This document shows, piece after piece, positions 2,318 to 54,854 of a stretch of 64,000 bases of DNA (position 1 is its first letter; every line of letters starts with the position of its first letter). The stretch comes from Candidatus Omnitrophota bacterium (GTDB lineage Bacteria > Omnitrophota > Gorgyraeia > Gygaellales > Profunditerraquicolaceae): the NCBI GenBank assembly GCA_025453445.1, contig JALOQJ010000005.1:136-64135 (forward strand), given 5' to 3'. The notes under the pieces are model-generated. The model was not told where the DNA came from. It did not search any database and saw only the letters and a program-made list of their open reading frames with translations. Made by a program: the position numbers and the translations under genes.

Positions 2318-3394
2318 ATGATTTCTCTGGTAATATTTTTATTTGTTTTCGGTATATTGATTCTCGTGCATGAATTCGGGCATTTTATCGTTGCCAAAAA
2401 AGTTGGGGTAAGGGTAGAAAGGTTCTCGTTAGGTTTTGGTAAAGTATTGTTAAGCCGAAAAAGCAAGGGAACAGAATATACCTTGAATGCTCTGCCTCTG
2501 GGGGGCTATGTAAAACTCGCAGGGGATGTCCCGGGTGAATGTTCCGGAAAATCTGATGAATATTTGTCAAAAACTCCGGGTCAGCGCGCGGCAATAATTT
2601 TCTGCGGCCCGCTGGTAAATTATCTATTGGGATTTTTTTGTTTTTGGCTGATATTTTTTACCGGGTATCCGACGCTGACTACTAAAGTTGGCGGCCTGCT
2701 CGATGGTTTTGGCGCAAAAGATGCCGGTGTGCAAATCGGCGATCAGATTATCAGCGTAGACGGCCAAAAGGTGGCTTATTGGGAAGAACTGCAGAAAGCG
2801 ATGCAGGCAAAGGGCAATGTGCCGCAGATGAAATTTTCCATCCTGCGTAACGGCAAAGAAATCGGGCTGGAGATAAAAATTAAAGAAAAAGAAATACAGG
2901 ACTTAATCGGCTCAAAACAGAGTATTGGCTTAATCGGGATTACTCCGGTAGATGAAATTATCACAGTGCGCCATTCTTTTTGGCAATCATGTTTCTTAGG
3001 CATAGAAAAAACCTGGTATTTGACAGAAATGACTTATAAGGCCCTTTGGAGGATGATTACCGGAAGGCTGTCTTTCCGTGATTCAGTTACCGGGCCCTTG
3101 GGGATATTCTATATTACTTCCAAAGCCGCGCATCTGGGGATTATCGCCTTAATCCATCTTATGGCAGTGTTGAATATCAGCCTCGCTATATTTAACCTGT
3201 TGCCTTTGCCGGTATTAGACGGCGGGCATATTTTATTATTGGCAATAGAAAAAATCCGCGGCAGGGCTTTAAGCATAAAAGCCGAACAGGTAGTTACGCA
3301 TTTTGGGTTAACTCTGATTATTACGCTAGCGGTAATTGCTACTTACAACGATATTCTGAAATTTAAAGATAAGATTTTTACTTTTTTAAAATAG
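2318..3394 (+). CDS. rseP: RIP zinc metalloprotease RseP (site-2 protease)
   Basis: HEFGHF zinc motif, one PDZ domain, and an NLLPLPVLDGGH motif near the C-terminus. Confidence 0.85.
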   Translation: MISLVIFLFVFGILILVHEFGHFIVAKKVGVRVERFSLGFGKVLLSRKSKGTEYTLNALPLGGYVKLAGDVPGECSGKSDEYLSKTPGQRAAIIFCGPLVNYLLGFFCFWLIFFTGYPTLTTKVGGLLDGFGAKDAGVQIGDQIISVDGQKVAYWEELQKAMQAKGNVPQMKFSILRNGKEIGLEIKIKEKEIQDLIGSKQSIGLIGITPVDEIITVRHSFWQSCFLGIEKTWYLTEMTYKALWRMITGRLSFRDSVTGPLGIFYITSKAAHLGIIALIHLMAVLNISLAIFNLLPLPVLDGGHILLLAIEKIRGRALSIKAEQVVTHFGLTLIITLAVIATYNDILKFKDKIFTFLK

Positions 3395-8693: not shown

Positions 8694-10886
8694 ATGGTAA
8701 CAAAGCCTAAAAAAATAAAACCTAAAGTTAAAAAAATTTCAGCGGTAAAGCACAAGCCGGAAGCAAAAAAAGCTGTTCCTAGGGCCAGCCGGCCCAAGCC
8801 AACAGCTAAGCCCCAGGTTAAGCCTAAGCTGGAAAAAATAATAAAGTCAACGAAGCCAAAAGTTATGCCTGTTGTTAAGCCGCAGGTTAAACCGGAAATT
8901 AAAGTTGCAGTGAAGCCTGAAGTGAAGGTTGCATTAAAACAGGAAGTGAAGCATGTAGTAAGGCCGGAAGTTAAACCTGAACTGAAGCCGGTAGTTAAAC
9001 CGGTAATAAAACCAGAAGTAAAGCCGGAAATAAAATCAGAGCATAAACCGGAAATAAAGCCTGTAATTAAGCCGGAAATTAAACCGGAGATCAAGCAGGA
9101 ATTTAAGCAGCAGGTTAAAGAGACGGCACATTTAAAAGAATTGGTATTAAAATTTCCGGTTATTGTAAAAGACCTTGCCATAAAGCTTCAGGAGAAACCA
9201 TCGATATTAATCAAAATGCTCATGGATATGCGCATTATGGCAGGGATTAATCAGGCATTAGATGAGGAAGCAGCAGCAAAGATCTGTGAAAAATTCGGTT
9301 TTAAAATCATACCAGCGCCCGGTGAAGAAGAATTGGCATTACGTGTGCATCAGGAAGCGGATAAGCCGCAGTCTCTAAAAGCGCGGCCGCCGATAGTTAC
9401 TTTTATGGGCCACGTTGATCATGGAAAGACTTCGCTTCTGGATGCGGTAAGAAAAACCAAAGTTGCTGAGTCAGAACACGGCGGGATTACTCAGCATATC
9501 GGCGCCTACCGCGTGCATCTTCCCCACGGGGATATTACATTTTTAGATACGCCGGGGCATGAGGCGTTTACTGCTATGCGTGCGAGAGGAGCGAAGATTA
9601 CCGATATCGTAGTTTTGGTTGTTGCCGCGGACGATGGGATCATGCCTCAGACTAAAGAAGCAATTGATCATGCGCGCGCCGCCGGTGTTTCTATTATTGT
9701 TGCTGTAAACAAAATCGATAAGCCGCAGGCAGATCTTGACCGGGTAAAAAAACAACTTTCAGAAATGGATCTTTTAGCTGAAGATTGGGGTGGTAAAACC
9801 ATTACTGTCCCGGTTTCTGCTAAGACCGGTGCGGGTATAGATAATTTGCTGGAAATGATTATTCTGGAATCTCAGATGCTGGAATTAAAAGCCAATCCGG
9901 ATCGTGCAGCCAGGGGTGTTGTGGTAGAAGCAAAGATGTCTAAGGGGAAGGGGCCGGTGGCTACTCTATTAGTGCAGAATGGCACATTGCATTTAAATGA
10001 GTTTATTATCGTAGGCAATTTCCTTGGCAGGGTGCGCGCGATGTTTAATCATCTTGGCCAGGCTGTAGCTGAAGCAGGCCCGGCTTATCCGGTGGAGGCA
10101 TTGGGTTTGTCGGGAGTTCCTGATGCAGGCGAGCAATTTTTTGTGATTAGCGATGAGAAACAGGCAAAGGAAATAATTGCTTTGCGCCAAGAGCAGGAAA
10201 AACAGGCTCAGGTCAAGCAGGTTAAGCGTATCAATCTTGAAGAATTACATGCGCAGATTAAAGAAGGGAAAATCAAGGATCTGAAGCTGATTATTAAGGC
10301 AGATGTGCAGGGTTCTTTGGCGGCAATCAAAGATACGCTCGACAAAACCAATACTTCGGAAATTAAGTTAGATATTATCCATGAAGGCGTGGGTAATATT
10401 AATTCGTCGGATGTAATCCTGGCAGTTGCCTCTAACGCCCTGATTTTAGGTTTTAATGTAGTACAGGATGATTTAGCTAAAGTAATATCGGCAAAAGAAG
10501 GCGTGGATGTGCGCGTCTACAATATTATTTATGAATTAGCTAATGATATTAAAGCGGCAATTGAAGGCATGCTTGAGCCAAAAATTAAGAAAGTATTCCT
10601 GGGGAGAGTAGATATAAGGCAGGTTTTTAAGCTTTCTCGTTCAGGCATGGTAGCCGGCTGCTTTGTGAGTAAAGGTAAGATTACCCGGCAGGCGGTAATT
10701 AACCTGGTGCGTAACGGCGAGCTGATTTTTGAAGGTAAAATCAGTAACCTGAAACGTTTTAAAGATGATGTAAAAGAAGTGGCTGAGGGTTTTGAATGCG
10801 GGATTACTCTTAGCGGTTTTGACAGTATGCAGGCAGGCGATGTTATTGAGGCATATGATATAGAGAAAGTGGCGCGTAAGCTATGA
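8694..10886 (+). CDS. infB: Translation initiation factor IF-2 with a repetitive KP-rich N-terminal region
   Basis: G-domain motifs [20 protein letters not shown] and NKIDK. The N-terminus carries tandem [10 protein letters not shown]-type repeats. Confidence 0.95.
8874..9114 (+). repeat. In-frame tandem repeats inside infB, encoding (V/I)KPE(V/I)KP units
   Basis: The motif gttaaaccggaa / gtgaagcctgaa recurs with a 15-18-nt period. This is low-complexity coding sequence in the IF2 N-domain. Confidence 0.7.
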
Positions 10887-11869
10887 AGAAAAGAATATTG
10901 AGCGGGATGCGGCCAACAGGAAAATTGCACCTCGGCCATCTGGTAGGTGCTCTGGATAACTGGATAAAATTGCAGGATGAGTATGAATGTTTTTTTATGG
11001 TTGCTGATTGGCATGCTCTTATGGGCGAATATGAAAAACCGCAAATTTTGCCTGAGTTTATCATTGATAACGTTGCCGATTGGCTGAGTGCCGGAATTGA
11101 TCCAGAAAAAGCCGTTCTATTCATTCAGTCGCAAGTACCTGAGCATCTGGAATTACAGATGATTTTTTCCTGCCTGACGCCTTTAGGCTGGCTGGAAAGA
11201 TGCCCGACGTATAAAGAACAATTGCGTGAGGTAAAAACCCGTGACTTACATACATATGGTTTTTTAGGCTATCCTGTATTGCAGGCAGCAGATATCCTGC
11301 TTTATAAAGCAGGTAAGGTGCCGGTAGGGGAAGATCAGCTGCCGCATCTGGAACTCACCCGGGAAATTGCCCGGCGTTTTAACAGCCTATATAATCATGA
11401 AGTTTTTTCTGATCCGGGGGCGATATTAACCAAGACTCCGCGGCTTTTAGGCTTAGATGGCAGAAAGATGAGCAAAAGCTATGACAATACAATTAATCTT
11501 TCTGATTCCGAAGATATTATAAAAAAGAAAATTTCTAATATGATTACCGATCCGGAAAGGATCAAGCTTGTTGATCCGGGCCATCCATCGGTTTGTAATG
11601 TTTTTGCTTATTACGCGGTATTTTTTCCTGAAATGAAGGATGAGCTGCATAAAGCTTGCGCGGATGCGGGATTAGGCTGTGTAGAGTGCAAGAAACGGCT
11701 GGCTTCCTGTTTGATAGAATTATTAAAGCCGATCCAGAAAAAACGCCATGATTTTTTAAAAGATAAGCAAATGATTTTAAAGATTCTCGAAGATGGAAAG
11801 GCCAGGGCTTCGGCTGTTGCCAGTGCAACAATCAGAGAAGTAAAGGCTGCAATGAAATTATCCCTATGA
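10883..11869 (+). CDS. trpS: Tryptophanyl-tRNA synthetase
   Basis: Class I HIGH-type motif (TGKLHLGH) and KMSKS. Length is 328 aa. Confidence 0.95.
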   Translation: MKKRILSGMRPTGKLHLGHLVGALDNWIKLQDEYECFFMVADWHALMGEYEKPQILPEFIIDNVADWLSAGIDPEKAVLFIQSQVPEHLELQMIFSCLTPLGWLERCPTYKEQLREVKTRDLHTYGFLGYPVLQAADILLYKAGKVPVGEDQLPHLELTREIARRFNSLYNHEVFSDPGAILTKTPRLLGLDGRKMSKSYDNTINLSDSEDIIKKKISNMITDPERIKLVDPGHPSVCNVFAYYAVFFPEMKDELHKACADAGLGCVECKKRLASCLIELLKPIQKKRHDFLKDKQMILKILEDGKARASAVASATIREVKAAMKLSL

Positions 11870-13961: not shown

Positions 13962-13976
13962 TATGATAGGTTTTTA

Positions 13977-14213
13977 AATGAATCTGGCGCGTTTTCGAGC
14001 GAATGTTGATTTTAGGCAAAGCATGCTCGAGTATTTTTGGGAATTCCGATGCCCCGCGAATGCGGGGCAATATCGGAACGGCGATGCTGTTTGAGGACAT
14101 TTTGCGTATAGCGCAAAATGGCCGAGTTCAGCAGCCGCCAAAAATACGAGAGACCTTTGCCGGCCCCGAAGGGGCAAAATCGACTTTGAGCGAGAAAATG
14201 CGGCAGATTCATT
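13977..14213 (+). repeat. Family-1 GC-rich structured element, copy 1 (candidate ncRNA or MITE-like element)
   Basis: It is bounded by a 10-bp inverted repeat, AATGAATCTG...CAGATTCATT, that extends to a roughly 19-bp closing helix. Internal hairpins are ccccgc-gaat-gcgggg, cattttgcg-tata-cgcaaaatg and gccccgaaggggc. It is GC-rich against an AT-rich background. The second copy is at 23709. Confidence 0.8.
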
Positions 14214-20663: not shown

Positions 20664-21483
20664 ACCGCTTGCGGAAAAAATTAAAGAAGAGATAAAAGCA
20701 CAAATTCAGGCATTGGGGATTAAGCCTGTTTTGGCTAGTGTTTTAGTAGGCGAGAATGCCGGTGCTGAAGCCTATGTCAAATCACAAAGCAAAGCCGCAG
20801 AAAATTTAGGGATTGTTTATCAATTTCATAAGCTTGATGCAGCTACAACGGAAGTTGCCTTAATTGAATTTATCAAGAAACTAAATAGCGATAAAAATGT
20901 TAACGGCATTATTATTCAGATGCCGCTTCCAGCGCAAATAGATTATAAAAAAATCTCTCAATTTATTTCTGCGGAAAAAGATGTTGAAGGCATGCATCCG
21001 GCAAATATAGGTAAAATAGTATTCGGTAAGGCGAAGATTCTACCCTGTACGCCGGCGGCAGTAATGGAGCTTTTAAATAGCACGGGCGTTGATTTATACG
21101 GTAAAGAGGTAGTGATTGTCGGCCATAGCGAAATTGTAGGCAAGCCTTTAGCGCTTTTGTTGCTTGAAAAATTTGCTACTGTTACAGTAGCTCATATCGG
21201 TACCAGCAAAGCTGGCAAATTAGAAGAGCATATTAAGAAAGCTGAAGTATTAATTGTGGCAGTGGGTAAGGCGGGGTTAATCAAAGGTGATTTAGTTAAA
21301 GAAGGCGCAATTGTCATTGATGTTGGGATCAATAGGGTGGATGGTAAGATTGTCGGCGATGTGGAGTTTGAAGCGGCAGAGAAGAAAGCAAGCTACATTA
21401 CACCTGTTCCCGGCGGTGTCGGTCCACTGACTGTAACTATGTTAATGCGTAATTTAGTCGAAGCTGCGAAATTACAAAAATAA
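20641..21483 (+). CDS. folD: Bifunctional methylene-THF dehydrogenase / methenyl-THF cyclohydrolase
   Basis: Length is 280 aa. The FolD motifs VGxxxxSxxYxxxK, PGGVGP and TVTxxH-like are present. Confidence 0.95.
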   Translation: MAKLLEGKPLAEKIKEEIKAQIQALGIKPVLASVLVGENAGAEAYVKSQSKAAENLGIVYQFHKLDAATTEVALIEFIKKLNSDKNVNGIIIQMPLPAQIDYKKISQFISAEKDVEGMHPANIGKIVFGKAKILPCTPAAVMELLNSTGVDLYGKEVVIVGHSEIVGKPLALLLLEKFATVTVAHIGTSKAGKLEEHIKKAEVLIVAVGKAGLIKGDLVKEGAIVIDVGINRVDGKIVGDVEFEAAEKKASYITPVPGGVGPLTVTMLMRNLVEAAKLQK

Positions 21484-21753
21484 GTTCTTTGGATTTTTTC
21501 CGTGTGTCTTGTCTGTGTTTTTTCGGGTAGTTTACGAGGGGGCGGGTCCTGTCGAGGCATATTTCTTGCAGGAACGCACGATTTTCCCCGGCGTGGAAAA
21601 TCGCGCTCGGCTCCTCGGCCTCGCTCGTCCCAGACAAGATTAGTGCGGGGGACACCGTGCCCGCTCGGCCTGCGGACGTCCTGCTCGAATCGCGCCTCGT
21701 CAATCCGCTTCGACAGGATAGAAGTCGCGCTCAAAACCGGCCAAGTCACCCGC
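21484..21753 (+). repeat. Family-2 GC-rich structured element, copy A
   Basis: Roughly 95% identical to 22851..23120. It starts immediately after the folD stop codon. Its left end carries the reverse complement of the 21-nt motif at 21500-21521. It contains the hairpin cgattttcc-acgccgg-ggaaaatcg. Confidence 0.85.
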
Positions 21754-22849: not shown

Positions 22850-22850
22850 A

Positions 22851-23120
22851 GTTCTTTGGATTTTTTCCGTGTGTCTTGTCTGTGTTTTTGCGGGTAGTTT
22901 ACGAATGGGCGGGTCCTGTCGAGGCATATTTCTCGCAGGAACGCACGATTTTCCCCGGCGTGGAAAATCGCGCTCGGCTCCTCGGCCTCGCTCGTCCTCT
23001 AAAGTTTATTTAGGGAGGACACCGTGCCCGCTCGGCCTGCGGACGTCCTGCTCGAATCGCGCCTCGTCAACCCGCTTCGACAGGATAGAAGCCGCGCTCA
23101 AAACCGGCCAAGCCACCCGC
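22851..23120 (+). repeat. Family-2 GC-rich structured element, copy B
   Basis: Near-identical to copy A except for an 18-nt equal-length substitution block (cagacaagattagtgcgg versus tctaaagtttatttaggg). It starts 1 nt after the stop of the upstream gene and carries the motif reverse complement at 22866-22887. Confidence 0.85.
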
Positions 23121-23688: not shown

Positions 23689-23708
23689 AGTAGTTTTGGT
23701 GTTTGATA

Positions 23709-23937
23709 AATGAATCTGGAGCGTTTTCGAGCGAATGTCGATTTTAGGCAAAGCATGCTCGAGTATTTTTGGAAATTCCGATGCCCCGCGAATGCGGGGC
23801 AATATCGGAACGGCGATGCTGTTCGAGGAGCATTTGCTAGAGCAAATGCGACGAGTTCAGCAGCCGCCAAAAATACGAGAGACCTTTGCCGGCCCGCCGA
23901 AGGCGAGGCAAAATCGACTCTGAGCGAGAAAACCGAC
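23709..23937 (+). repeat. Family-1 GC-rich structured element, copy 2
   Basis: It has the same AATGAATCTG...CAGATTCATT ends and the same hairpins as copy 1, with compensatory changes: gcatttgc-taga-gcaaatgc, and cgcc-gaa-ggcg. Confidence 0.8.
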
Positions 23938-45131: not shown

Positions 45132-45569
45132 GTGAAATTATTTTTAAAAGAGGAAGTACCAATAGAAACTAAAAAATTAGCCCTGCGTATTGCAGCAATT
45201 GTGAAGGAGAAAAAAGGCGAGGATGTAGTTGTTTTGGATATGCGGCCTCAGGCAAGTTTTTGCGATTATTTTGTGATCGTAAGCGCCAATTCCTTAAGGC
45301 AAGTTAATGCAATCGCGCAAGCAATAGCAGAAGATTTATCGAAAGTTCGAATAAAACCTCTCTCAAAGGCTTTGTCGGCAGATGAGTCCGGCTGGATAGC
45401 CATGGATTTCTCAAGCGTAGTAGCGCATATATTTTATAAGCCGATGAGAGAGTTTTATTCTTTAGAGCGCCTGTGGTCCGACGCAAAAAGAGTTAGAATT
45501 GAAAAAAAATATTCAAGACCTGTTAATCCCCGTAATAAAAAAGTCACTAGAAAACTTAGGGCTAGCTGA
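45132..45569 (+). CDS. rsfS: Ribosomal silencing factor RsfS (Iojap family)
   Basis: Central motif ...VVLDMRPQASFCDYFVIVSANS.... The true start may be downstream of 45132. Confidence 0.8.
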   Translation: MKLFLKEEVPIETKKLALRIAAIVKEKKGEDVVVLDMRPQASFCDYFVIVSANSLRQVNAIAQAIAEDLSKVRIKPLSKALSADESGWIAMDFSSVVAHIFYKPMREFYSLERLWSDAKRVRIEKKYSRPVNPRNKKVTRKLRAS

Positions 45570-47127
45570 AGGCTTAACCTCGGAAATAATCCTCGATTTT
45601 CCCACTGACGCGCATTTCGGCGAATTATCCACAAGCCTACCTTTAAAATTAGCCAAGGCATTTAAAAAATCTCCGGTTAAAATCGCCAAGGAATTAACCG
45701 ATATTATTAAAAGCGAATTGGAAAAAAACAACCTGGCTAAGTATATCCGGGAAATTAAAGTTGAGGGAGCGGGGTTTATTAATTTCTATTTCAGCAATGT
45801 TTTCTTTCATGAATATCTGCAGGGTGTGTTAATTAATAAAGAAAAATCATTTCAGCCTAATCTGGGAGCTGGAAAGCGTGTTTTAATCGAATTTGTCAGC
45901 GCTAATCCTACCGGGCCTTTGTCCGTGGCTCATGCACGCCAGGCAGTTGTCGGAGATGTCCTGGCAAATATCCTTTCTTTTTTAGGATTTATTGTAGAAA
46001 AAGAATATTACCTGAATGATGAAGGAAATCAGATTAACATCCTTGCTGCTTCCACGGGTTTAAGGATGCGTGAATTGCAGGGGGAGGCTATTAATTATTA
46101 TCAGGGCGATTATATCAAGGATATTGCCGCAGGTATGCTTAAGCGTGGAATTAAGATTGAAGATTCTCCTGATTATCCGGCGGATTATATTTTAAAAATT
46201 ATCCGGCAGGAATTGGATGATTTTGGAGTGAAGTTTGATACTTGGTTTAGCCAAAAATCATTAGGCGCAAGCAACAGGATTAAAAAGACGCTGGATTTAT
46301 TAAAACAGAAGGGTTTTCTTTACGAAGAAGATAGCGCGCTTTGGTTTAAGTCTACTCAGTTTGGAGACGATAAAGACAGGGTAGTAATTAAAAGTGATGG
46401 CAGCTATACGTATCTGGCGCCGGATATTGCTTATCATGAAGATAAGTACAAGCGTGGTTTTGACTGGTTGATTAACCTCTGGGGCCCAGATCATCACGGA
46501 TATATTAATCGTCTGAAGGCTTCGGTTCAGGCACTTGGTAAAGATGCCAAATCGCTTTCAATTATAATCGTGCAGCTGGCAACAATTTTTCGCAGCGGTG
46601 TGCCGGTGCAGATGTCTACACGCCGCGGCCAGTATATCACCTTAAGGGAAGTGTTGAACGAAGTCGGGCCTGATGCAGCAAGGTTCTTTTTTGTGATGCG
46701 CCGCACTGCAAGCCATCTGGATTTTGATTTGGAAGTTGCCAAGAAACAAACTTCGGAAAATCCCGTCTATTACGTGCAATATGCTTATGCTAGAATCTGC
46801 AGTATTTTGCGCAATAATCCTTCTGGAGCCAAGCCCGTGGATGCGGATCTGGCACTGTTAAAAGAAAAAGAAGAAATTGAGTTGATTAAGAAACTTTGGC
46901 AGTTTCCGCATATCCTGCATATGTGCCTTGTAACCGAAGATCCTTATATGCTGACAGTTTATTTGCAGGAAGCAGCAGAGTATTACCACAAATTTTATGA
47001 CTTACATCGCGTCTTAGGCGAAGATGAAAAATTGACGCAAGCCCGGCTTGCGCTTTGCGAAGCAACTAGAATAGTGATTGCTGTTGGGTTAGAGCTGTTG
47101 GGTATTGCCCGTCCGGAGAAGATGTAA
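45499..47127 (+). CDS. argS: Arginyl-tRNA synthetase
   Basis: Class I HIGH-type motif, KMSTR (MSTRRGQ), and a C-terminal DALR domain. Confidence 0.95.
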   Translation: MKKNIQDLLIPVIKKSLENLGLAEGLTSEIILDFPTDAHFGELSTSLPLKLAKAFKKSPVKIAKELTDIIKSELEKNNLAKYIREIKVEGAGFINFYFSNVFFHEYLQGVLINKEKSFQPNLGAGKRVLIEFVSANPTGPLSVAHARQAVVGDVLANILSFLGFIVEKEYYLNDEGNQINILAASTGLRMRELQGEAINYYQGDYIKDIAAGMLKRGIKIEDSPDYPADYILKIIRQELDDFGVKFDTWFSQKSLGASNRIKKTLDLLKQKGFLYEEDSALWFKSTQFGDDKDRVVIKSDGSYTYLAPDIAYHEDKYKRGFDWLINLWGPDHHGYINRLKASVQALGKDAKSLSIIIVQLATIFRSGVPVQMSTRRGQYITLREVLNEVGPDAARFFFVMRRTASHLDFDLEVAKKQTSENPVYYVQYAYARICSILRNNPSGAKPVDADLALLKEKEEIELIKKLWQFPHILHMCLVTEDPYMLTVYLQEAAEYYHKFYDLHRVLGEDEKLTQARLALCEATRIVIAVGLELLGIARPEKM

Positions 47128-47131
47128 GTGA

Positions 47132-47289
47132 GTGCACAATTTACGGAACGAAGTGAACGTAAATTGTATGCACGAACTTACCCCACACCCAGGCAGCAGA
47201 ATAAAAAGCTAATGTTTTCTGGGTGTGGGGTTAATTCGCACAGCGACTTATGTTCATCCGCTTTTAGCGGATTCCATAAGTCGCGTGCT
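47132..47289 (+). repeat. Three-hairpin intergenic element, copy 1 (argS-recJ spacer)
   Basis: Hairpin 1 is gtgcacaatttacg...cgtaaattgtatgcac. Hairpin 2 is ccccacacccag-N26-ctgggtgtgggg. Hairpin 3 is gcacagcgacttatg-(atccgct-ttt-agcggat)-cataagtcgcgtgc. Confidence 0.75.
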
Positions 47290-47295
47290 CATTAA

Positions 47296-48984
47296 ATGCA
47301 AAGCCATAAAATCCTCAATATTCATTCCCTTCATAGTAAACTTCAGGATACTCTAAGTAAAGAATTAAAAATTTCCAAAGTCCTGGCTCAGGTATTAATT
47401 AACCGCGGGATTAAGTCTATCCAAGAAGCCGAAGAATTTCTTAAAATTGACCCCAAAAACCTCATCGATCCATATTCTTTTCGTCATATGCATACAGCAG
47501 TGAGCCTGATAAAAAAAGCGCTTAAAGATCAAGAAAAAGTCATGCTCTGCGGCGATTATGATGTAGATGGCATTACTTCTTTGGCTTTGTTAAAAGGCAC
47601 TTTTTCAAAACTCGGGTTGGATACTTTACATTATATACCTCACCGGGTGAAAGACGGCTATGGCCTGAATAAAACAGCTGTGGAGCTTGCCCGGCAAAAA
47701 AAAGTTAAGCTGTTGATTACTGTTGACAGCGGCACTACCAGTTTTTCCGAAGTAGAGGAATTAAGGAGATCCGGCATAGAAGTAATCATTACTGATCATC
47801 ATGAGCCGGCGCATGATAGGCTTCCTGATGCCTCAGCGATTATCAATCCAAAAATAAAAGGTTCTGCTTATAAATTTAAGGAATTAGCCGGAGTAGGGGT
47901 GGCTTATAAATTATGCCAGGCTCTGACAAATAAAGTATTGGCTGAAGAGCTGGATTTGGTGGCTCTGGGAACAATTGCTGATGTGGTTTCTTTGACCGGA
48001 GAAAACCGGATTATCGCAAAATTAGGCTTGGAATGCCTTTCTAATACAAAAAGAATCGGGATTAAATCGCTGGTAGAAGCAAGCCGCTTGCGCAGCAAAG
48101 AAATTAATTCGACTTTTGTCAGTTTTATTCTCGGGCCGCGGCTGAATGCCAGCGGCAGAATGGATTCTGCAGAAGCTTCTTTAAATCTTTTGCTTAGCCA
48201 GGATAAGGAGGAGGCAGATATACTTGCTAAGTCCATTGATGCCTTAAACCGCCAGCGCCAAAAAATAGAAAGCGGCATTTTAGAAGAGGCACATGATTTA
48301 ATCAGCCGTGAAGTAAATTTTAAAGACCATAAAATAATCGTTGTTGCCAAAGAAGGCTGGCATCAGGGTGTTTTGGGGATTGTTGCTTCTAAACTGGCAG
48401 ATAAATTCTTCAGGCCTACGATAGTTATTTCATTGAGCGAAAATTTGTGCAAAGGCTCGGGCCGTTCGATAAAAAATTTCCATCTTTTTCATGCTTTGCG
48501 GGATTGCGCTGAACATCTGGAAAGTTTTGGCGGGCATGCTCACGCTGTCGGCTTGATAGTTTCCAGGGGCAATATTGAAAATTTTAAAAAAGAAATTAAC
48601 CGGCTGGCAAAAGAAAGATTAAGAGTAGAGGATTTACTGCCGAGTGTTGATATAGATATGGAGCTGAGCCTTGCTGATTTAAGCAGCTCACTGGCTCAGG
48701 AGTTGCAAACTTTGGAGCCTTTTGGCACAGGTAACCGCGAGCCGTTATTTTATAGCCGCAACCTTAAGCTAAAAGGCGAGCCGCAGGTCTTAAGCCGCGA
48801 TACTTTGAAGTTCTGGGTTACCGATGAAGAGATTACTTATCCTGTGATTGGTTTTGGCATGGCAAGTTTCAAAGAAAGCCTGATAAATGCCGCTTCTTTG
48901 GATTTGGTTTATATATTGGGAATTGATACCTGGCAAGGCGATGAAAGCATAATTCTGGAAGCCAAAGATATATTCTTTAAATAA
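47296..48984 (+). CDS. recJ: Single-stranded-DNA-specific exonuclease RecJ
   Basis: DHH motifs (GDYDVDG, DHH) and the DHHA1 domain. Confidence 0.9.
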   Translation: MQSHKILNIHSLHSKLQDTLSKELKISKVLAQVLINRGIKSIQEAEEFLKIDPKNLIDPYSFRHMHTAVSLIKKALKDQEKVMLCGDYDVDGITSLALLKGTFSKLGLDTLHYIPHRVKDGYGLNKTAVELARQKKVKLLITVDSGTTSFSEVEELRRSGIEVIITDHHEPAHDRLPDASAIINPKIKGSAYKFKELAGVGVAYKLCQALTNKVLAEELDLVALGTIADVVSLTGENRIIAKLGLECLSNTKRIGIKSLVEASRLRSKEINSTFVSFILGPRLNASGRMDSAEASLNLLLSQDKEEADILAKSIDALNRQRQKIESGILEEAHDLISREVNFKDHKIIVVAKEGWHQGVLGIVASKLADKFFRPTIVISLSENLCKGSGRSIKNFHLFHALRDCAEHLESFGGHAHAVGLIVSRGNIENFKKEINRLAKERLRVEDLLPSVDIDMELSLADLSSSLAQELQTLEPFGTGNREPLFYSRNLKLKGEPQVLSRDTLKFWVTDEEITYPVIGFGMASFKESLINAASLDLVYILGIDTWQGDESIILEAKDIFFK

Positions 48985-48986
48985 AA

Positions 48987-49214
48987 TTACGCTCGGGTAA
49001 TTGCGCCTTTTTTGATGCACTTAGTGCAGAGAAAAACTTTTTTCGCACGGCCGTTTACAAGGATACGCATTCTTTGCAGGTTAGGCAGAAACTTACGTAT
49101 GTTCCTGCGGCTGATTTTACTTCCTGTTCCGCCTTTTTTCTTGGCAAGGCCTTTACGCACTAAAATTTTTCCTGCAACCGCTTTTTTACCGCATATATGG
49201 CATATTTTTAACAT
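48987..49214 (-). CDS. rpmB: 50S ribosomal protein L28
   Basis: RRNIRKFLPNLQRMRI...VFLCTKCIKKG matches bL28, and an AAGGAGTA RBS lies on the - strand. Confidence 0.9.
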   Translation of the reverse strand: MLKICHICGKKAVAGKILVRKGLAKKKGGTGSKISRRNIRKFLPNLQRMRILVNGRAKKVFLCTKCIKKGAITRA

Positions 49215-49239
49215 TTTTAATTACTCCTTTAATGAGCAG

Positions 49240-49414
49240 ATAATTTACGGAGCGAAAGCGACGTAAATTATAGCTACTGTTAATTAAATGATTATCAGCG
49301 TCTGCGAATTAAACCCCACACCCAGCTACATTGAAATCTTTTATTTAGTATCTGGGTGTGTGGGTCAAATTCAGGCATACAACTTCCGTTCGCTTGCGCT
49401 CCGTAAGTTGTGCC
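49240..49414 (+). repeat. Three-hairpin intergenic element, copy 2 (rpmB divergent spacer)
   Basis: Same three-hairpin architecture as 47132, with compensatory changes in the hairpin 1 arms (cacaatttacg becomes ataatttacg). Hairpin 2 again has the ccccacacccag/ctgggtgtgtggg stem. Confidence 0.75.
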
Positions 49415-49545
49415 TTCATTTGAAGTATACTTGAAAATTCAGCCTTGTCAAATAATTAAATAAGAAAATCCTTGCTCTAATCCTCAATCAGGAGGTATAC
49501 TATAAGCACAAAATTTAAAGCGCAAAAATAATCAGGAGGTATAGA

Positions 49546-50739
49546 ATGCCTAAAACCTTAAAAGTCATCAGTATTGTTCTTTTCTTCTTTAGCCTGCTTC
49601 CCATTGTTTCTTCCCAAGCCCAAACCACTGACTCCATCCGTATTATTACCTACTATCCCTCACCCTACGGCAGTTACCGTGAACTAAGGACTAAAAGGCT
49701 GGCCATTGGTGATGATTATATTAAAACTGGCGTTCCTCCTGATAAATACGACTGGCAGGAATATGCCACTGATCCAATGCATAATATTGGTTATAATACA
49801 GACTTGGTAGTCCAAGGCAATGTGGGGATTGGGACAACGATGCCGGAATCCAATTTGGATATTGTTCAGGAAAATGGATTCCCGGTTATTTATTTAGATG
49901 GTTATGGGACAAGATCAGGAACAGTTAATTACGCCCCCCATTTTATTGGAAGGACTGCGCGTGGTACAGCAGCTTCTCCGCAAGCGACTCAATTAGGTGA
50001 TGGTTTGCTTGTTTTGCGTGGACTAGGCTATGGTTCAGGTGGATGGGTTGGCGGAAACTCCGGCTCCGGCCAGATAATAGTTTATGCAGATGGAGACTTT
50101 ACTAGTACTTCGTCTCCGGGAAAAATTATATTTTACACTACCCCTATAGATAGTACTATTAGTTCCGAGAGGATGATTATTAGTTCATCCGGCAACGTCG
50201 GCATCGGGACGACCAGTCCGCAAACGCCTGCGCCTGGAGGCGGCACTACCGGGAATTTAGATGTTAATGATGTTTATTTAAGAAGCACCGGTAAGTGGGC
50301 AAGCCAAGGTGGTGGAGGCGTTGTGCAGATGGTTTCTACTAACTATACGGGAACTATGGATAGCGCGGGTATTCCTTGGGATAATACAATTCCACTTTAT
50401 AGCGAAGGTAGCGAAATACTTACTTATGTCTTTACCCCGAAATATCCAGACAGTATGATTAGGATTGATGTTGTTGTTTCTGGTGATGAGATAGGCCAGA
50501 CTACCGCAATAGTGGCTTTGTTTAACGGTACGACCTGTGTGGATGCCGTTGCCAGTTATGGCCATGATTCACCACACGATTATAATTTGCTTTATACGGA
50601 ATCATCCGGCAGCACAAGCGCCAGGACATATTCAGTACGCGTGGGTAATATGCGGGTTAATTCTTCCAATGATATAGCTAACCCTCCTTTAGGTGGAAAG
50701 TATATTTCCAAAATGATTATTACAGAAATCCGCACCTGA
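49546..50739 (+). CDS. Secreted protein with tail-fibre-like GNVGIGTT(x)P repeats
   Basis: Signal peptide, two GNVGIGTT motifs, and a Gly/Ser/Thr-rich stretch. Confidence 0.6.
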   Translation: MPKTLKVISIVLFFFSLLPIVSSQAQTTDSIRIITYYPSPYGSYRELRTKRLAIGDDYIKTGVPPDKYDWQEYATDPMHNIGYNTDLVVQGNVGIGTTMPESNLDIVQENGFPVIYLDGYGTRSGTVNYAPHFIGRTARGTAASPQATQLGDGLLVLRGLGYGSGGWVGGNSGSGQIIVYADGDFTSTSSPGKIIFYTTPIDSTISSERMIISSSGNVGIGTTSPQTPAPGGGTTGNLDVNDVYLRSTGKWASQGGGGVVQMVSTNYTGTMDSAGIPWDNTIPLYSEGSEILTYVFTPKYPDSMIRIDVVVSGDEIGQTTAIVALFNGTTCVDAVASYGHDSPHDYNLLYTESSGSTSARTYSVRVGNMRVNSSNDIANPPLGGKYISKMIITEIRT

Positions 50740-50849: not shown

Positions 50850-53800
50850 ATGGAAAATAAAATCTTAGAAGGCTTGAATAAAGAGCAGAGAGAAGCGGTT
50901 ACGCACAAGCAGGGGCCGCTGTTGATTATTGCCGGTGCTGGCACAGGCAAAACTATGGTAATTACCCGCAGGATTTCCTGGCTTTTATCCGAAGGCTTGG
51001 CTAAAACCAGTGAAATTTTAGCGCTCACTTTTACTGATAAAGCATCTCAGGCGATGCAGGAACGCGTAGATATACTCCTGCCTTATGGTTATACAGATAT
51101 CTGGATTTCTACTTTTCATGCTTTTGGAGACAAAATACTGCGGGAAAATGCGGTGATTGCCGGTTTAAACCCTGATTTTAAGGTTTTGACTCAGGCGGAG
51201 GCAGCAGTATTTTTCCGCGAGCATCTTTTTGAATTTAACCTAACTTATTTCCGGCCATTATCTGATCCTACGCGTTTTATTGAAGCATTAATTTCTTTTT
51301 TTAGCCGGGCAAAAGATGAAGATATTTCACCTGAGGAATATTTAAAATATGCGCAGTCCCTTGCTATAAAGGCAAAAGAGAACCCCGAAGATAAAGCGCT
51401 CGAAGAAGAAGCTTTGCAGCAAATAGAAATAGCTGGAGCATATCTCAAGTATCAGGAATTGCTGGCAAAAGAAGGGCTGTTGGATTTTGGTAATCAATTT
51501 TACCTAAGCCTTAAGCTTTTGCGCGAGCATCCCTTAATTTTAAAAAAATACCAGCAGCAGTTTAAATATATTTTAGTTGATGAATTTCAGGATACTAATT
51601 TTGCGCAATTTCAGATTATCAAATTACTGGCTGGTGCGCATAAAAATATTACAGTCGTGGCAGATGATGACCAGTGCGTGGTTGCCGGCACGCTTATAGA
51701 AACGCCCGAAGGTAGAAAGAAAATTGAAAATATAAAGAGGGGCGATTTAGTCCTCACTGCTGTAGGCAAGGGCCATTTGGCTACCTCTAAAGTAACTAAC
51801 GTGTTTAAGAGAAGAAAAAAGACTAGGCTGCTAACTTTTGAAACAGAAAAAAGCAATAAAATTACAGTAACATCAAATCACAAAATGTTCTGCTATGTGC
51901 CGGTAAAGCTTAAAAATAAAGAGAAGAAGATTTATTATGTTTACCTGATGTTGAGAAAAGATTTAGGCTGGAGATTGGGGATTACTGATGATTTGGCGGT
52001 AAGATTAAAATTAGAACGCAGCGCTGATAAAATAATTGGTTTACGTTCTTTTGATACTGAACAGGAAGCTCAATTTTTTGAAACATTCCTTTCTTTAAAA
52101 TATAGCATACCCACAGTATGTTTCATGAAGAGAAAAGGGGTGCGTATAGTAGATGACTGGCTCAAGCGGCTTTATACGGAATTTAATACAGAAGAAAGTG
52201 TAAGGAAATTGGCTAAAGATTTAGATATAGACTTAGATTATCATCACTATTGCCTGGGTGCAGTGACCAGGGGCAATAAAATAAGGATAAAAATAAATGT
52301 TTATCTTTGTTACCGCAGGCATATATCAAAAGAAAGAAAAAACAGAATATTGAAAAATCCTTCTATTATGCATCAGGTTAGCTTAGAGACTTCAGATATC
52401 CAAACAATAACTAAATTAAGGAAACTGGGATTTAATTTGAGGAAGGCAAAAAAAGGTTTCAGGGTAAGGTATGACCTTGCCGATATTAAGAAAATAGAGG
52501 ATATTGCTTTTAAACTCAAGGAAATTACCGGCGGTATATTGGAATATAAATTCAGCCTCGGTAAGTTCAATGTAGTAAATTTACCGGCTCTGGTAATACC
52601 TGCCTCTAATATTTTGAGAGGGCATTATCTACCGGTTAGAAAGGAAAATAGTATTATTTATGATAGAATCGTAGGTATTAGAGAAAAAGAAACTACTGCA
52701 ACAGTATACGATTTAGAGATAGGGCGGACTCACAATTTTATTGCTAATAAAATAGTGGTGCATAATTGTATTTACCGTTTCCGGGGTGCTGCTTATTCTA
52801 ACCTGTTAAATTTTATTAAGGATTTTCCGGAGAGTAAAAAAGTCAGTATCGTCCAGAATTACCGTTCAACACAAGCAATCCTTGACAGCGCATACCGTTT
52901 GATTCAGCAGAATAATCCTGAGCGTTTTGAAGTAAAAGCAGGCATTAATAAGCAGCTTGTTGGTGTAACCAAAGGTGGCAAAGCTCCTGAGCATTTGCAT
53001 TTTGATACTCATTCTACTGAAGCGGATCAGGTTGCCGGATTGATTAAAGAAAAGATGAAGTCAGGAGATTCCCATTATCGTGATTTTGCTATTCTCGTGC
53101 GTTCCAATTCCGATGCCCGGGCTTTTTTGCAGGCATTGAATATGCAGGATATTCCCTGGCAATTCAGCGGTAATCAGGGGCTTTACAGCCGGGAAGAAGT
53201 AAAGCTTTGTATTAATTTCTTGCGCGTGGCAGCTAATCCTTCAGATTCGTTGAGCCTGTATTATCTGGTTAGCTCCGAAGCATATAATTTTAATCTTTCC
53301 GAATTGACTGTCATAAGCCATTATTCTAAACGCAGGAATAAGCCATTATATTTGGTTTTTCAGGATATCGGTAATATTGAAGAACTTGAGGTTACCAGCG
53401 ATGCCACAAAAGAAAAAATAAAAAATATTTTAAGCGATTTGGAAAAATTCCTTAAAACCAGCCGGCAAGAAACTACCGGAAAGTTATTGTATAGTTTTTT
53501 GACGGAAACCGGTTATTTAAAATCGCTTACCCAAAATCAGAATCTGGAAAACGAAACTAAAATTCAGAATTTAGCTAAGTTCTTTAATATCGTGCGTGAT
53601 TTTGAATTAGTAGCAAAGGAGGACCGGGTAATTAGTTTTGTAAATTACCTGAATCTTCTGATTGAAGCAGGCGATGATCCCTCTACTGTGCAGGCGGATT
53701 TAGACAGCGACGCGGTGAACGTGTTGACGATTCATAAGGCAAAGGGGCTGGAATTTAGGGTAGTATTTTTAGTCAGCCTTGTGCAGGGCCGTTTTCCCTG

Positions 53801-54854
53801 GCCGCGCAGGGCCCAGACTTTTGAATTGCCGGATATAATGATTAAAGAAGTGTTGCCTACTGGAGATTTTCATATTCAGGAAGAGCGCCGGCTTTTTTAT
53901 GTGGGAATGACCCGTGCCAAAGAAGAGCTTTACCTGACCAGCGCTGCTGATTATGGCGGCAGCCGCCTGAGGAAGGTAAGTCAATTTGTTGCTGAGGCTC
54001 TGGGTAAGGAAATGCCGGCTGTGGAAAAGAAAAAAACCAGCGCCCGCGAGGCGATTGAACGTTTCGCTTTGAAAAAAGAATCTCTGCCTTCAGCACAGCA
54101 AATTTTTCCCGAAGGTAAATTAGTTAATTTAAGTTATTACCACATCGATGATTATTTAACCTGCCCCTTAAAATACAAATACGTGAATATCCTGCGCGTG
54201 CCGATTATGGAACACCACACAGTAATTTATGGCCGCGCCATGCATGATGCAGTGAGCAAATATTTTCAGTTTAAATTAATCAATAAAAAAATGAGCCTCG
54301 CAGATTTATTAAATGCTTTTAGGGTTAGTTTTGACCCGCAGGGATTCTTAAGCGAAAAACACCAGCAAGAACGTCGTTCTACCGGTGAAAAAGCATTGAT
54401 ACGTTTTTTTGAGGAAGAAGAGAAGCTTGCAGCTCGTCCGAAATTCATCGAAAAAGAATTCTCTTTTATATTAGAAGATAATAAGATTTCCGGCCGCTTT
54501 GACCGCGTGGATGAAGATAAAGATGGCGCAATAATTATGGATTTTAAGACTTCGCAGATTAAAACCCATAAAGATGCAGATAAGCGTGCTGCAGAAAGCC
54601 TGCAGCTTAAACTTTATGCTTTGGCTTATCAGAGGATGTCCGGCAGCCTGCCTAAAAGCGTAGCGTTATATTTTCTGGAATCCGGCATGGTCGGTAAAAG
54701 CAGCATTGGCGAAGATGATTTGGAGGAAATTAAGGAAAAAATTAAGGAAGTCTCCGCAGGTATCCGTAAGGGAAATTTTTCAGCTGCGCCTGCTTATATG
54801 GGTTGTGCCTATTGTGCCTACAATCAGATTTGTCCTTCTGTCTTGATTAAATAA
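50850..54854 (+). CDS. UvrD/PcrA-family helicase fused to a C-terminal PD-(D/E)xK / 4-Cys (Cas4- or AddB-like) nuclease domain, interrupted by an intein
   Basis: Helicase motif I GAGTGKT, motif II VDEFQDTN, and motif III split as ADDDQ|C...HN|CIYRFRGA. The C-terminal nuclease region ends with YMGCAYCAYNQICP. Confidence 0.85.
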   Translation: MENKILEGLNKEQREAVTHKQGPLLIIAGAGTGKTMVITRRISWLLSEGLAKTSEILALTFTDKASQAMQERVDILLPYGYTDIWISTFHAFGDKILRENAVIAGLNPDFKVLTQAEAAVFFREHLFEFNLTYFRPLSDPTRFIEALISFFSRAKDEDISPEEYLKYAQSLAIKAKENPEDKALEEEALQQIEIAGAYLKYQELLAKEGLLDFGNQFYLSLKLLREHPLILKKYQQQFKYILVDEFQDTNFAQFQIIKLLAGAHKNITVVADDDQCVVAGTLIETPEGRKKIENIKRGDLVLTAVGKGHLATSKVTNVFKRRKKTRLLTFETEKSNKITVTSNHKMFCYVPVKLKNKEKKIYYVYLMLRKDLGWRLGITDDLAVRLKLERSADKIIGLRSFDTEQEAQFFETFLSLKYSIPTVCFMKRKGVRIVDDWLKRLYTEFNTEESVRKLAKDLDIDLDYHHYCLGAVTRGNKIRIKINVYLCYRRHISKERKNRILKNPSIMHQVSLETSDIQTITKLRKLGFNLRKAKKGFRVRYDLADIKKIEDIAFKLKEITGGILEYKFSLGKFNVVNLPALVIPASNILRGHYLPVRKENSIIYDRIVGIREKETTATVYDLEIGRTHNFIANKIVVHNCIYRFRGAAYSNLLNFIKDFPESKKVSIVQNYRSTQAILDSAYRLIQQNNPERFEVKAGINKQLVGVTKGGKAPEHLHFDTHSTEADQVAGLIKEKMKSGDSHYRDFAILVRSNSDARAFLQALNMQDIPWQFSGNQGLYSREEVKLCINFLRVAANPSDSLSLYYLVSSEAYNFNLSELTVISHYSKRRNKPLYLVFQDIGNIEELEVTSDATKEKIKNILSDLEKFLKTSRQETTGKLLYSFLTETGYLKSLTQNQNLENETKIQNLAKFFNIVRDFELVAKEDRVISFVNYLNLLIEAGDDPSTVQADLDSDAVNVLTIHKAKGLEFRVVFLVSLVQGRFPWPRRAQTFELPDIMIKEVLPTGDFHIQEERRLFYVGMTRAKEELYLTSAADYGGSRLRKVSQFVAEALGKEMPAVEKKKTSAREAIERFALKKESLPSAQQIFPEGKLVNLSYYHIDDYLTCPLKYKYVNILRVPIMEHHTVIYGRAMHDAVSKYFQFKLINKKMSLADLLNAFRVSFDPQGFLSEKHQQERRSTGEKALIRFFEEEEKLAARPKFIEKEFSFILEDNKISGRFDRVDEDKDGAIIMDFKTSQIKTHKDADKRAAESLQLKLYALAYQRMSGSLPKSVALYFLESGMVGKSSIGEDDLEEIKEKIKEVSAGIRKGNFSAAPAYMGCAYCAYNQICPSVLIK
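51675..52766 (+). mobile_element. Intein (364 aa) inserted in helicase motif III
   Basis: N-terminal CVVAGTLIETPEG (block A), TSNH (block B), VYDLEIGRTHNFIAN (block F), and a terminal VVHN followed by a +1 Cys (block G). It is in frame. The roughly 200-aa central domain is presumably a homing endonuclease. Confidence 0.8.

Follow-up and report, generated by a model that had tools for sequence, protein, structure and literature searches.

A dispersed family of three-hairpin palindromic repeats in Omnitrophota that resembles REP and BIME elements

Correia elements of Neisseria and the mycobacterial interspersed repetitive units (MIRUs) are repeats of ~100-160 bp that occupy intergenic or intercistronic spacers, are co-transcribed and form hairpins in the mRNA. 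The terminal inverted repeats of Correia elements are 26 bp long and come with TA duplications; MIRUs are direct repeats in tandem, whose ends overlap the neighbouring stop and start codons. Other palindromic insertions (the intervening sequences of rRNA, the short tandemly repeated repetitive (STRR) sequences in helix P12 of cyanobacterial RNase P, the mitochondrial GC clusters and the double-hairpin elements) are found in peripheral rRNA and RNase P helices and in intergenic DNA, with a sporadic distribution among relatives. Here we analyse a three-hairpin element that is present in two copies, beside recJ and rpmB, in a 64,000-nt stretch from a metagenome-assembled genome (MAG) of Candidatus Omnitrophota, hereafter the window, to which all coordinates refer unless they carry an L-number, which denotes one of the other sampled loci. 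Both copies are members of a family that is dispersed, non-coding and nearly confined to Omnitrophota, and they show no signal specific to recJ or rpmB. We read them as members of a mobile family of mosaic palindromes similar to the repetitive extragenic palindromes (REPs) and bacterial interspersed mosaic elements (BIMEs), as defined in PMC3333891, in which the constraint acts on the DNA, unlike in a dedicated riboswitch or small RNA (sRNA), and we give this reading a probability of roughly 0.55.

The initial annotation had described two copies with three hairpins each, and both are indeed present far beyond chance. The pattern of the first hairpin, AATTTACGGANCGAANNNNACGTAAATT, occurs in the window only at 47138-47165 and 49242-49269, where shuffles predict 0, and CCCCACACCCAG and its complement are confined to the two middle hairpins, besides one chance match with two mismatches. 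The folding z-scores of both copies range from -8.6 to -10.0 as RNA, on either strand, and are -10.6 and -7.2 as DNA; in the left arm of copy 1, the minimum-free-energy folds of RNA and DNA agree on the pairing. A covariance model of the arm (R1) finds exactly four arms in the 64-kb window, with E-values of 7e-13 to 3.5e-6. The borders given in Table 1 are those at which the R1 matches end, so that the copies, first placed at 47132-47289 and 49240-49414, are where they were said to be but reach 3-11 nt further at each end, copy 1 taking in the argS stop codon. The segments gcgaattaa and ttaattcgc, which had been taken to extend the middle stem, pair instead with the outermost T-N-A-R of their own arms; across the arms pairing falls from 92.8% to 67.8%, and in copy 1 it holds a C·A mismatch. 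A hairpin nested in the third one exists in copy 1, as a copy-specific CCGC/GCGG mini-hairpin in the right-arm loop, but not in copy 2, and the middle stem is common to both copies except for an extra T in its 3' arm in copy 2. The identical copy 1 locus was found in two other assemblies.

The order of the genes is argS, copy 1, recJ, rpmB (minus strand), copy 2 and, at 49546, a gene without a Pfam match. The TAA stop codon of argS (47125-47127) provides positions 1-3 of the left arm of copy 1, and the outer end of the right arm, TTAA, touches the recJ ATG at 47296, at a distance of 0; a Shine-Dalgarno (SD)-like GGAGAAG sits in the 3' end of argS, upstream of the element. Copy 2 had been assigned to the 5' region of a plus-strand gene; it lies in fact in the minus-strand leader of rpmB, between promoter and SD, the outer end of its left arm abutting the SD (CTCCT, 49224-49228, minus), and from the predicted promoter transcription would begin at the outer edge of the copy. 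A 55-aa open reading frame (ORF) at 47128-47295 was considered as a gene and discarded: it has no Pfam match, and with the variable loops and indels found elsewhere we judge the frame not to be conserved.

The same architecture recurs around the central hairpin in other loci. A scan of species-representative genomes for this hairpin gave 104 stretches, from which ~7 chance or doubtful matches were removed; the carriers number about 39 species-level genomes, and the exact copies in each are 1-11. Most of these genomes are labelled Omnitrophota and the others Planctomycetes-type or simply 'bacterium', and the GC-content tags in the names of several carrier MAGs go from 39 to 55%, with one further MAG at 65%. 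At least 120 more stretches came from a metagenome scan, and the IMG/VR, plasmid and phage collections contained no match to the central hairpin. An exact metagenome scan for the right-arm marker of copy 1 gave no match, source contig included, and the sample is therefore probably outside that collection. With the arm model we collected 164 arms (152 + 8 + 4) forming 47 complete elements, so that the search beyond the window leaves no room for the notion that only two copies exist. The complete 1.82-Mb chromosome CP070807 has one exact-pattern locus (L091); in the sampled DNA the density is about one element per 20-30 kb, and the exact central hairpins indicate tens of copies per genome at most, below the hundreds typical of REP/BIME. 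In Rfam, the whole window gave nothing at the gathering threshold and, when 46900-49700 was scanned permissively, the only matches were chance ones to microRNAs and snoRNAs (best E 0.49, to a microRNA model), and a full-text literature search on palindromic repeats or miniature transposable elements with inverted repeats (MITEs) of Omnitrophota returned nothing relevant. Apparently, this family of palindromic DNA repeats has so far not been described.

A full element measures 145-195 bp and consists of an arm hairpin, a central hairpin and an inverted arm. The arm, which was defined by RNAalifold on 18 copies and by pair counts on 36 (A3) and 150 (A4) arms, reads 5' T-N-A-R, TGA, a variable stem of 14-18 bp with its loop, GAA and Y-T-N-A. 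In A3, 95.3% of the cells are paired, against 72.9% in shuffles and 22-37% in slid controls, and double changes are seen in 15 of 19 pairs; A4 repeats this picture (73-75% in shuffles across alignments, 21-37% in slid controls), and the compensatory changes already seen between the two copies are thus real and extensive throughout the family. The outermost T-N-A-R belongs to the arm helix because it covaries with the inner Y-T-N-A (position 4: A-U 99, G-C 43; position 2: A-U 78, U-A 33, C-G 16), and it often coincides with the TAA stop codon of the upstream gene. A conserved 2x2 internal loop, TGA/GAA, is predicted to be able to form a T-A pair plus tandem G·A, and both ends of the element carry the conserved inverted motif RTGAG…CTCAY. 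The right arm is of the left-arm type, reverse-complemented, which makes the whole element a strand-symmetric quasi-palindrome: in 47 arm pairs the orientation is +/-, and the central hairpin that separates the two arms measures 15-97 nt. Pairing reaches 92.8% within arms and 67.2% across them, and was higher within arms in 46/46 elements tested. Two other folds, a closed four-way junction in which the ends AATGAG/CTCATT form the closing stem and one long hairpin (the fold of copy 2 preferred by RNAfold), are ruled out by the covariation and by this comparison.

The central hairpin is exchangeable. It begins with CCC and ends with GGG, and its commonest stem is CCCCACACCCAG/CTGGGTGTGGGG with a free loop; some variants keep this stem invariant, some have 1-2 changes in it, including one compensatory pair in L065, and others are unrelated hairpins that likewise begin with CCC or CCG and end with GGG or CGG. 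At one rib operon junction, the elements of different species differ in their central hairpin. Copies of the central stem that escaped selection by the search pattern mostly carry 1-2 changes or more, which is consistent with decay from the consensus.

Comparison with relatives shows the family to behave as mobile or recombining DNA and indicates how both copies came to their sites. In L003, L005 and L007 the argS-recJ spacer measures 6 nt, 3 nt and -1 nt (an overlap) and holds no element; the junction reads TAAttttctATG in the closest relative (L003, RecJ 89% identical) and TGAgtaATG and TAATG in the more distant ones. Copy 1 is therefore a gain in the lineage of the window, added exactly between the argS stop and the recJ start once this lineage had separated from the nearest sampled relative. 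At rpmB, the leader of L007 contains no element, that of L005 a 40-nt remnant and that of L003 a single well-paired arm. Copy 2 is an older insertion between the rpmB promoter and SD and is eroding in relatives; the neutral decay that had been named as an argument against a selected structure is thus seen in part, at the rpmB site. Which junctions of the ribBA-ribH-nusB operon are filled varies from species to species, a junction that is filled in some being empty in others, and a flank-based search for filled and empty sites produced more such pairs, including L165 and L020, whose flanks are 93-98% identical. The TAA…TAA flanks of both demonstrably derived insertions (copy 1 and the copy downstream of nusB in L038) and the inverted RTGAG…CTCAY ends could recall a classical MITE of the IS5/Harbinger type, for which a DDE transposase would duplicate a 3-bp TAA (TNA) target. 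As a general rule, a target duplication was nevertheless rejected, since the flanking trinucleotides are direct repeats in only 10/47 elements; the supposed flank covaries with the inner tetranucleotide and is hence part of the hairpin, and a transposase that binds double-stranded DNA would have no need for arms that pair with themselves while differing from each other. With no autonomous partner in the loci and no match in the plasmid, phage and IMG/VR collections either, we regard a classical MITE as very improbable.

The central stem is also found on its own, and about 12 of about 35 such solo occurrences lie inside RNAs recognised by Rfam (Table 1). In the RNase P RNA of L237 it is present in three helices, including P3 and P12. 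The RNase P genes of L237 and L250 look near-identical outside the hairpins (by eye, not computed), and P3 has CCCGCCAC…GTGGCGGG in one of them and the family stem in the other; P12 also differs, and the swapped hairpins share CCC…GGG borders. This contrast is the clearest sign of hairpin-tip replacement in register. P12 of L250 (about 10510-10620) carries a different palindromic insert of ~100 nt with CGCGGAACTA-type repeats, which suggests that several families of hairpin cassettes exist, and the FMN riboswitch of L076 has a 47-nt insertion in a second hairpin (3177-3248). It is conceivable, if improbable in our view, that the CCCCACACCCAG/CTGGGTGTGGGG helix is a portable 'hairpin-tip cassette' served by a dedicated, phylum-wide trans-acting system. 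Such a system could be a DNA machinery that swaps hairpin tips in register or an RNA- or DNA-binding factor that recognises the helix, be it in RNase P P3/P12, 23S rRNA, riboswitches or intercistronic elements, and the three-hairpin element may then be the commonest docking platform of the helix. If true, in-register tip swapping would represent a previously undescribed form of mobility.

In functional RNAs, G·U is as a rule far better tolerated than A·C. In the arms whose direction of transcription could be inferred, counted in mRNA sense, there are 29 G·U pairs and 39 A·C mismatches (p = 0.27), and G·U is thus not the commoner of the two. L018 (3393-3439) and L082 (171-217) hold orthologous half-elements, with left arm and central hairpin and without right arm, in which the central loop has opposite orientations, as if it had been flipped between the inverted stem arms. 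The missing excess of G·U, the inversion of the loop and the decay from the stem consensus speak for a constraint on the DNA itself or for a copying process by which perfect palindromes are restored. Because the hairpins stay Watson-Crick-perfect on both strands, the constrained form would be single-stranded or cruciform DNA, or a palindrome-copying process, and not a folded RNA. New copies and swaps of the central hairpin would arise via hairpin intermediates, with a preference for landing at TAA/TNA beside gene borders and in existing hairpin tips. At somewhat less than even odds, the engine may be a trans-acting, hairpin-specific enzyme of the HUH/Y1 kind; our second candidate, only slightly less probable, is template-switching during replication, or gene conversion, seeded by TAA or CCC/GGG microhomology. 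Once inserted, the element would be co-transcribed and would fold as three independent stable hairpins. The stop codon, SD and start codon beside it would thereby remain usable, and this would account for its being tolerated by the host; if the host benefits at all, for instance through stabilised mRNA, this would be a secondary effect.

Proteins with a Y1 domain are common in Omnitrophota, and a more specific proposal is that of a canonical REP/BIME serviced by a REP-associated tyrosine transposase (RAYT), together a REPtron, in which a domesticated Y1 transposase would recognise the arms as its REPs and the outer T-N-A-R and inner Y-T-N-A would act like the cleavage-site/guide pairing of IS200/IS605. 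Its appeal lies in the arms: they are palindromic but imperfectly so, conserving an internal mismatch (tandem G·A) and a 5'-foot motif (TGA-G), form inverted pairs around a conserved linker as in BIME-1 (PMC3333891), lack consistent target duplications (matching flanks in 10/47) and show a complementarity between flank and inner tetranucleotide that parallels the guide/cleavage pairing of IS608 (PMC3201880, PMC5934647). However, the 5' foot has no GTAG motif, there are tens of copies per genome at most and not hundreds, populations around a master copy are missing, and among about 220 element-bearing loci there is none in which arms flank a Y1 gene; we therefore consider a REPtron unlikely. 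The Y1 queries (IS608 TnpA and YafM) were approximate, and among the metagenome loci 1/120 has a Y1-like ORF, 1.7 kb from the element. RAYT-like genes for products of 223-226 aa gave 1332 matches in Omnitrophota at E <= 1e-15, and one is present in L116 where L115 is without it. Inverted repeats of another kind, GGGACGGTTCT / AGAACCGTCCC, flank the genes of this 224-aa RAYT family (L116 8790-9660; L118, L120, L121 and L124), a classical REPtron-like arrangement that is unrelated to the three-hairpin element and that also speaks against a REPtron made of the arms.

A Y1-domain ORF in L064, the only one beside a central hairpin, was discarded as a mobiliser: it follows a c-di-GMP-I riboswitch that merely contains the hairpin, and among orthologous loci the riboswitch contains it in that genome only. 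The L064 protein matches Pfam Y1_Tnp (3e-11) and scores 70.9 bits with NCBIfam REP_Tyr_transpos, just below the cutoff of 80. A syntenic protein of 390-410 aa is widespread in Omnitrophota (L064 6566-7741, minus strand; L113-L117, about 10001-11194). By sequence reading, it has an N-terminal RAYT-like Y1 domain with an HUH motif (HLH) and a catalytic-type Tyr (AYIHLNP), followed by an apparent transmembrane helix and a C-terminal domain. Upstream of its gene lie a c-di-GMP-I riboswitch with terminator and two direct repeats GAAAGTGCCAGGCACAAAC, and downstream a 155-aa ORF and giant ORFs of 1560-8192 aa. This syntenic family, with its predicted transmembrane helix, has no arms in five loci (105 kb), a further count against the REPtron.

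Returning to a mobile family under DNA-level constraint, several observations weigh against it: (i) neither a transposase nor a Y1/HUH gene stands beside arms in the about 220 element-bearing loci, and there are no arms within 10 kb of the 224-aa RAYT genes (four loci). (ii) Active MITE or REPIN (hairpin-forming REP doublet) populations usually include near-identical copies, and none were seen in the sampled genomes, where identity reaches at most 84.5% within a genome (mean 71.6%; 68.1% between genomes), on a small sample per genome. (iii) At L165, the filled allele replaces a 49-nt SD-containing leader of L020 rather than being added to it, and other filled sites keep little or none of the empty-site spacer, with flanks only about 70-85% identical. 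(iv) The arms remain well paired where the rest of an element has decayed, as in L003, which could mean selection in place. (v) The same 12-bp central stem is shared across genomes of 39-55% GC and calls for a sequence-specific constraint that this reading does not name. (vi) The spacing to genes is regular: the start codon lies 0-4 nt past the arm, without SD, in 20 arms; an SD comes directly after the element in about 30, and in about 26 arms with an abutting SD the distance to the start codon is 10-15 nt, copy 1 at recJ exemplifying the first type and copy 2 at rpmB the second. This could reflect an RNA function, yet much of the regularity is as expected from insertion at a TAA stop within operon spacers as short as those of the empty sites (0-6 nt).

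An alternative is that the hairpins act in RNA, as an intercistronic or leader element of the mRNA for processing ('punctuation'), stabilisation or translational coupling, with the invariant central helix as the handle for a phylum-specific RNA-binding factor; this role as a handle would account for the helix in RNase P RNA (up to three helices), 23S rRNA and the c-di-GMP-I and FMN riboswitches. The strong covariation of the arms, the identical stem sequence in many species and the start and SD spacings fit such a module, as does placement: all elements examined lie in probably transcribed spacers, 26/47 sit between a stop codon and the next co-directional start, and in 31 arms positions 1-3 are the stop codon itself. 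On the other hand, about 85% of the elements have a gene start beside them, as would result from any intergenic placement, and the perfect strand symmetry singles out no transcribed strand. The loop changes orientation between orthologues, and close relatives have empty or decayed sites with no sign of compensation. The neighbours are unrelated housekeeping genes without a common function (rib operon, groES-groEL, rpsH-rplF, pilB/pilC-type), and all-against-all clustering of 1284 ORFs from 100 loci for a recurrent neighbour protein yielded housekeeping families only. Taking in the count of G·U against A·C as well, we hold an RNA-level module to be the less probable reading, though a serious rival. 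Of the roles first proposed (a regulatory leader, an sRNA or a REP- or BIME-like element), the last one fits best, and the first two are left unsupported by the unrelated housekeeping neighbours, the empty argS-recJ site, the decay of the rpmB copy, the strand symmetry, G·U not exceeding A·C and the absence of a matching Rfam family.

Table 1. Positions of the two copies, their parts and neighbouring genes in the window, and of structural RNAs that contain the central hairpin in other loci
Feature	Position	Strand	Basis or remark
Copy 1, complete element, 171 bp	47125..47295		fills entire argS-recJ spacer; R1 matches; empty orthologous sites
Copy 1 left arm, TAAG/TGA/G-stem-loop-C/GAA/CTTA	47125..47181	+	R1 67.0 bits, E = 7e-13
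Copy 1 central hairpin (hp2)	47181..47230		CCCCACACCCAG 47181-47192, 26-nt loop, CTGGGTGTGGGG 47219-47230
Copy 1 right arm, inverted unit	47230..47295	-	R1 56.2 bits, E = 2.4e-10
Copy 2, complete element, 194 bp	49229..49422		essentially the whole rpmB 5' leader (minus strand)
Copy 2 left arm, weakest of four, basal-stem mismatches	49229..49288	+	R1 38.3 bits, E = 3.5e-6
Copy 2 extra 25-nt segment	49289..49313		partial duplication of the arm's inner end (…GCGAATTAAA); copy-copy alignment
Copy 2 central hairpin	49314..49364		CCCCACACCCAG, 26-nt loop, CTGGGTGTGTGGG with one extra T
Copy 2 right arm, CAAA/TGA/A…T/GAA/TTTG	49365..49422	-	R1 65.4 bits, E = 1.7e-12
rpmB promoter-like site, TTGACA, 16 nt, TATACT (11/12 matches)	49424..49451	-	conserved in L003, L005, L007
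argS	45499..47127	+	Pfam DALR_1, tRNA-synt_1d, Arg_tRNA_synt_N
recJ	47296..48984	+	no SD between copy 1 and ATG
rpmB (ribosomal protein L28)	48987..49214	-	Pfam Ribosomal_L28
RNase P RNA with central hairpin	L034 1564-1962 (+); L228 1745-2239 (-)		Rfam
RNase P RNA with central hairpin	L250 10404-10836 (-); L237 1077-1465 (-)		Rfam
23S rRNA with central hairpin	L186 1-1109	-	Rfam
c-di-GMP-I riboswitches with central hairpin	L049 2852-2967; L064 7843-7955 (-); L167 3353-3450		Rfam
FMN riboswitch with central hairpin in one helix	L076 3177-3372	-	Rfam

Beyond copy 2, the SD region AATCAGGAGGTATA… upstream of the gene at 49546 is directly duplicated (49486-49520 and 49530-49564, 71% over 35 nt), and no long ORF follows its first copy (49486-49520). 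Further downstream, a UvrD/AddA-type helicase-nuclease of 1334 aa (50850-54854) contains an intein (Intein_splicing and Hint domains) at residues about 271-640, and its orthologues in L003, L005 and L007 (968-985 aa) are without it. Long direct repeats of 91-97% identity (13975-14166 and 23707-23895; 21483-21753 and 22850-23120) are probably what the initial annotation called its first repeat family, and the arm model gave no significant match to them (best E about 2). A run of repeats with a 12-nt period (AARCCNGAARTN-like) at 8854-9119 is presumably a coding low-complexity repeat.

These elements add a structurally distinct family to the REP/BIME/MITE group, from an uncultured phylum of very small cells whose genome dynamics have so far been little known. 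They sit directly on stop codons, SDs and start codons in housekeeping operons and so illustrate what amount of structured RNA a compact operon junction is able to absorb, and the common central hairpin ties intergenic repeats to the replacement of helices in essential RNAs. The family is thus a concrete system for studying how palindromes spread without an obvious transposase. In practical terms, the repeats will break assemblies, create false ORFs such as the 55-aa frame in copy 1, and, in Omnitrophota MAGs, distort RNase P RNA and riboswitch models.

The similarities to REP/BIME and to the guide pairing of IS608 are structural only, and each of the known systems shares some features with the Omnitrophota elements and differs in others: (i) Like E. 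coli BIME-1 and REPs, these elements are extragenic, are probably co-transcribed with their neighbours and consist of two inverted, imperfectly palindromic units around a well-conserved linker, each unit with a conserved stem mismatch and a short motif at the foot of the hairpin (PMC3333891). In contrast, their 5' foot is T-N-A-R-TGA-(G/A/C), without GTAG, their linker is itself a hairpin whose stem is conserved phylum-wide, they number tens and not hundreds, no RAYT flanked by units was found, and their highly diverged arms conserve structure rather than sequence. (ii) The REPINs of Pseudomonas are also inverted doublets of REP-like units, non-coding, gained and lost (PMC3116915), but in them it is the long hairpin joining the two REPs that is conserved, and their populations centre on a master sequence, whereas in Omnitrophota the cross-arm pairing is poor (67%), the arms fold on themselves and near-identical copies were not seen. 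(iii) IS200/IS605 elements such as IS608 have subterminal hairpins, make no target duplication and pair their flank with an internal tetranucleotide (PMC3201880, PMC5934647); their ends are strand-asymmetric and recognised by a TnpA that the element encodes, while the Omnitrophota element is a symmetric palindrome without linked TnpA. (iv) As in MIRUs, the ends of the Omnitrophota elements overlap stop and start codons, although neither MIRUs nor Correia elements have a mosaic of arm, central hairpin and arm, or a stem in common with structural RNAs. (v) With the palindromic insertions of RNA genes they share the presence of short hairpin repeats both in RNA helices and in intergenic DNA; in Omnitrophota, however, the 12-bp stem replaces helix tips in register, even in RNase P P3, and one and the same stem is common to riboswitches and to an intergenic mosaic across the whole phylum.

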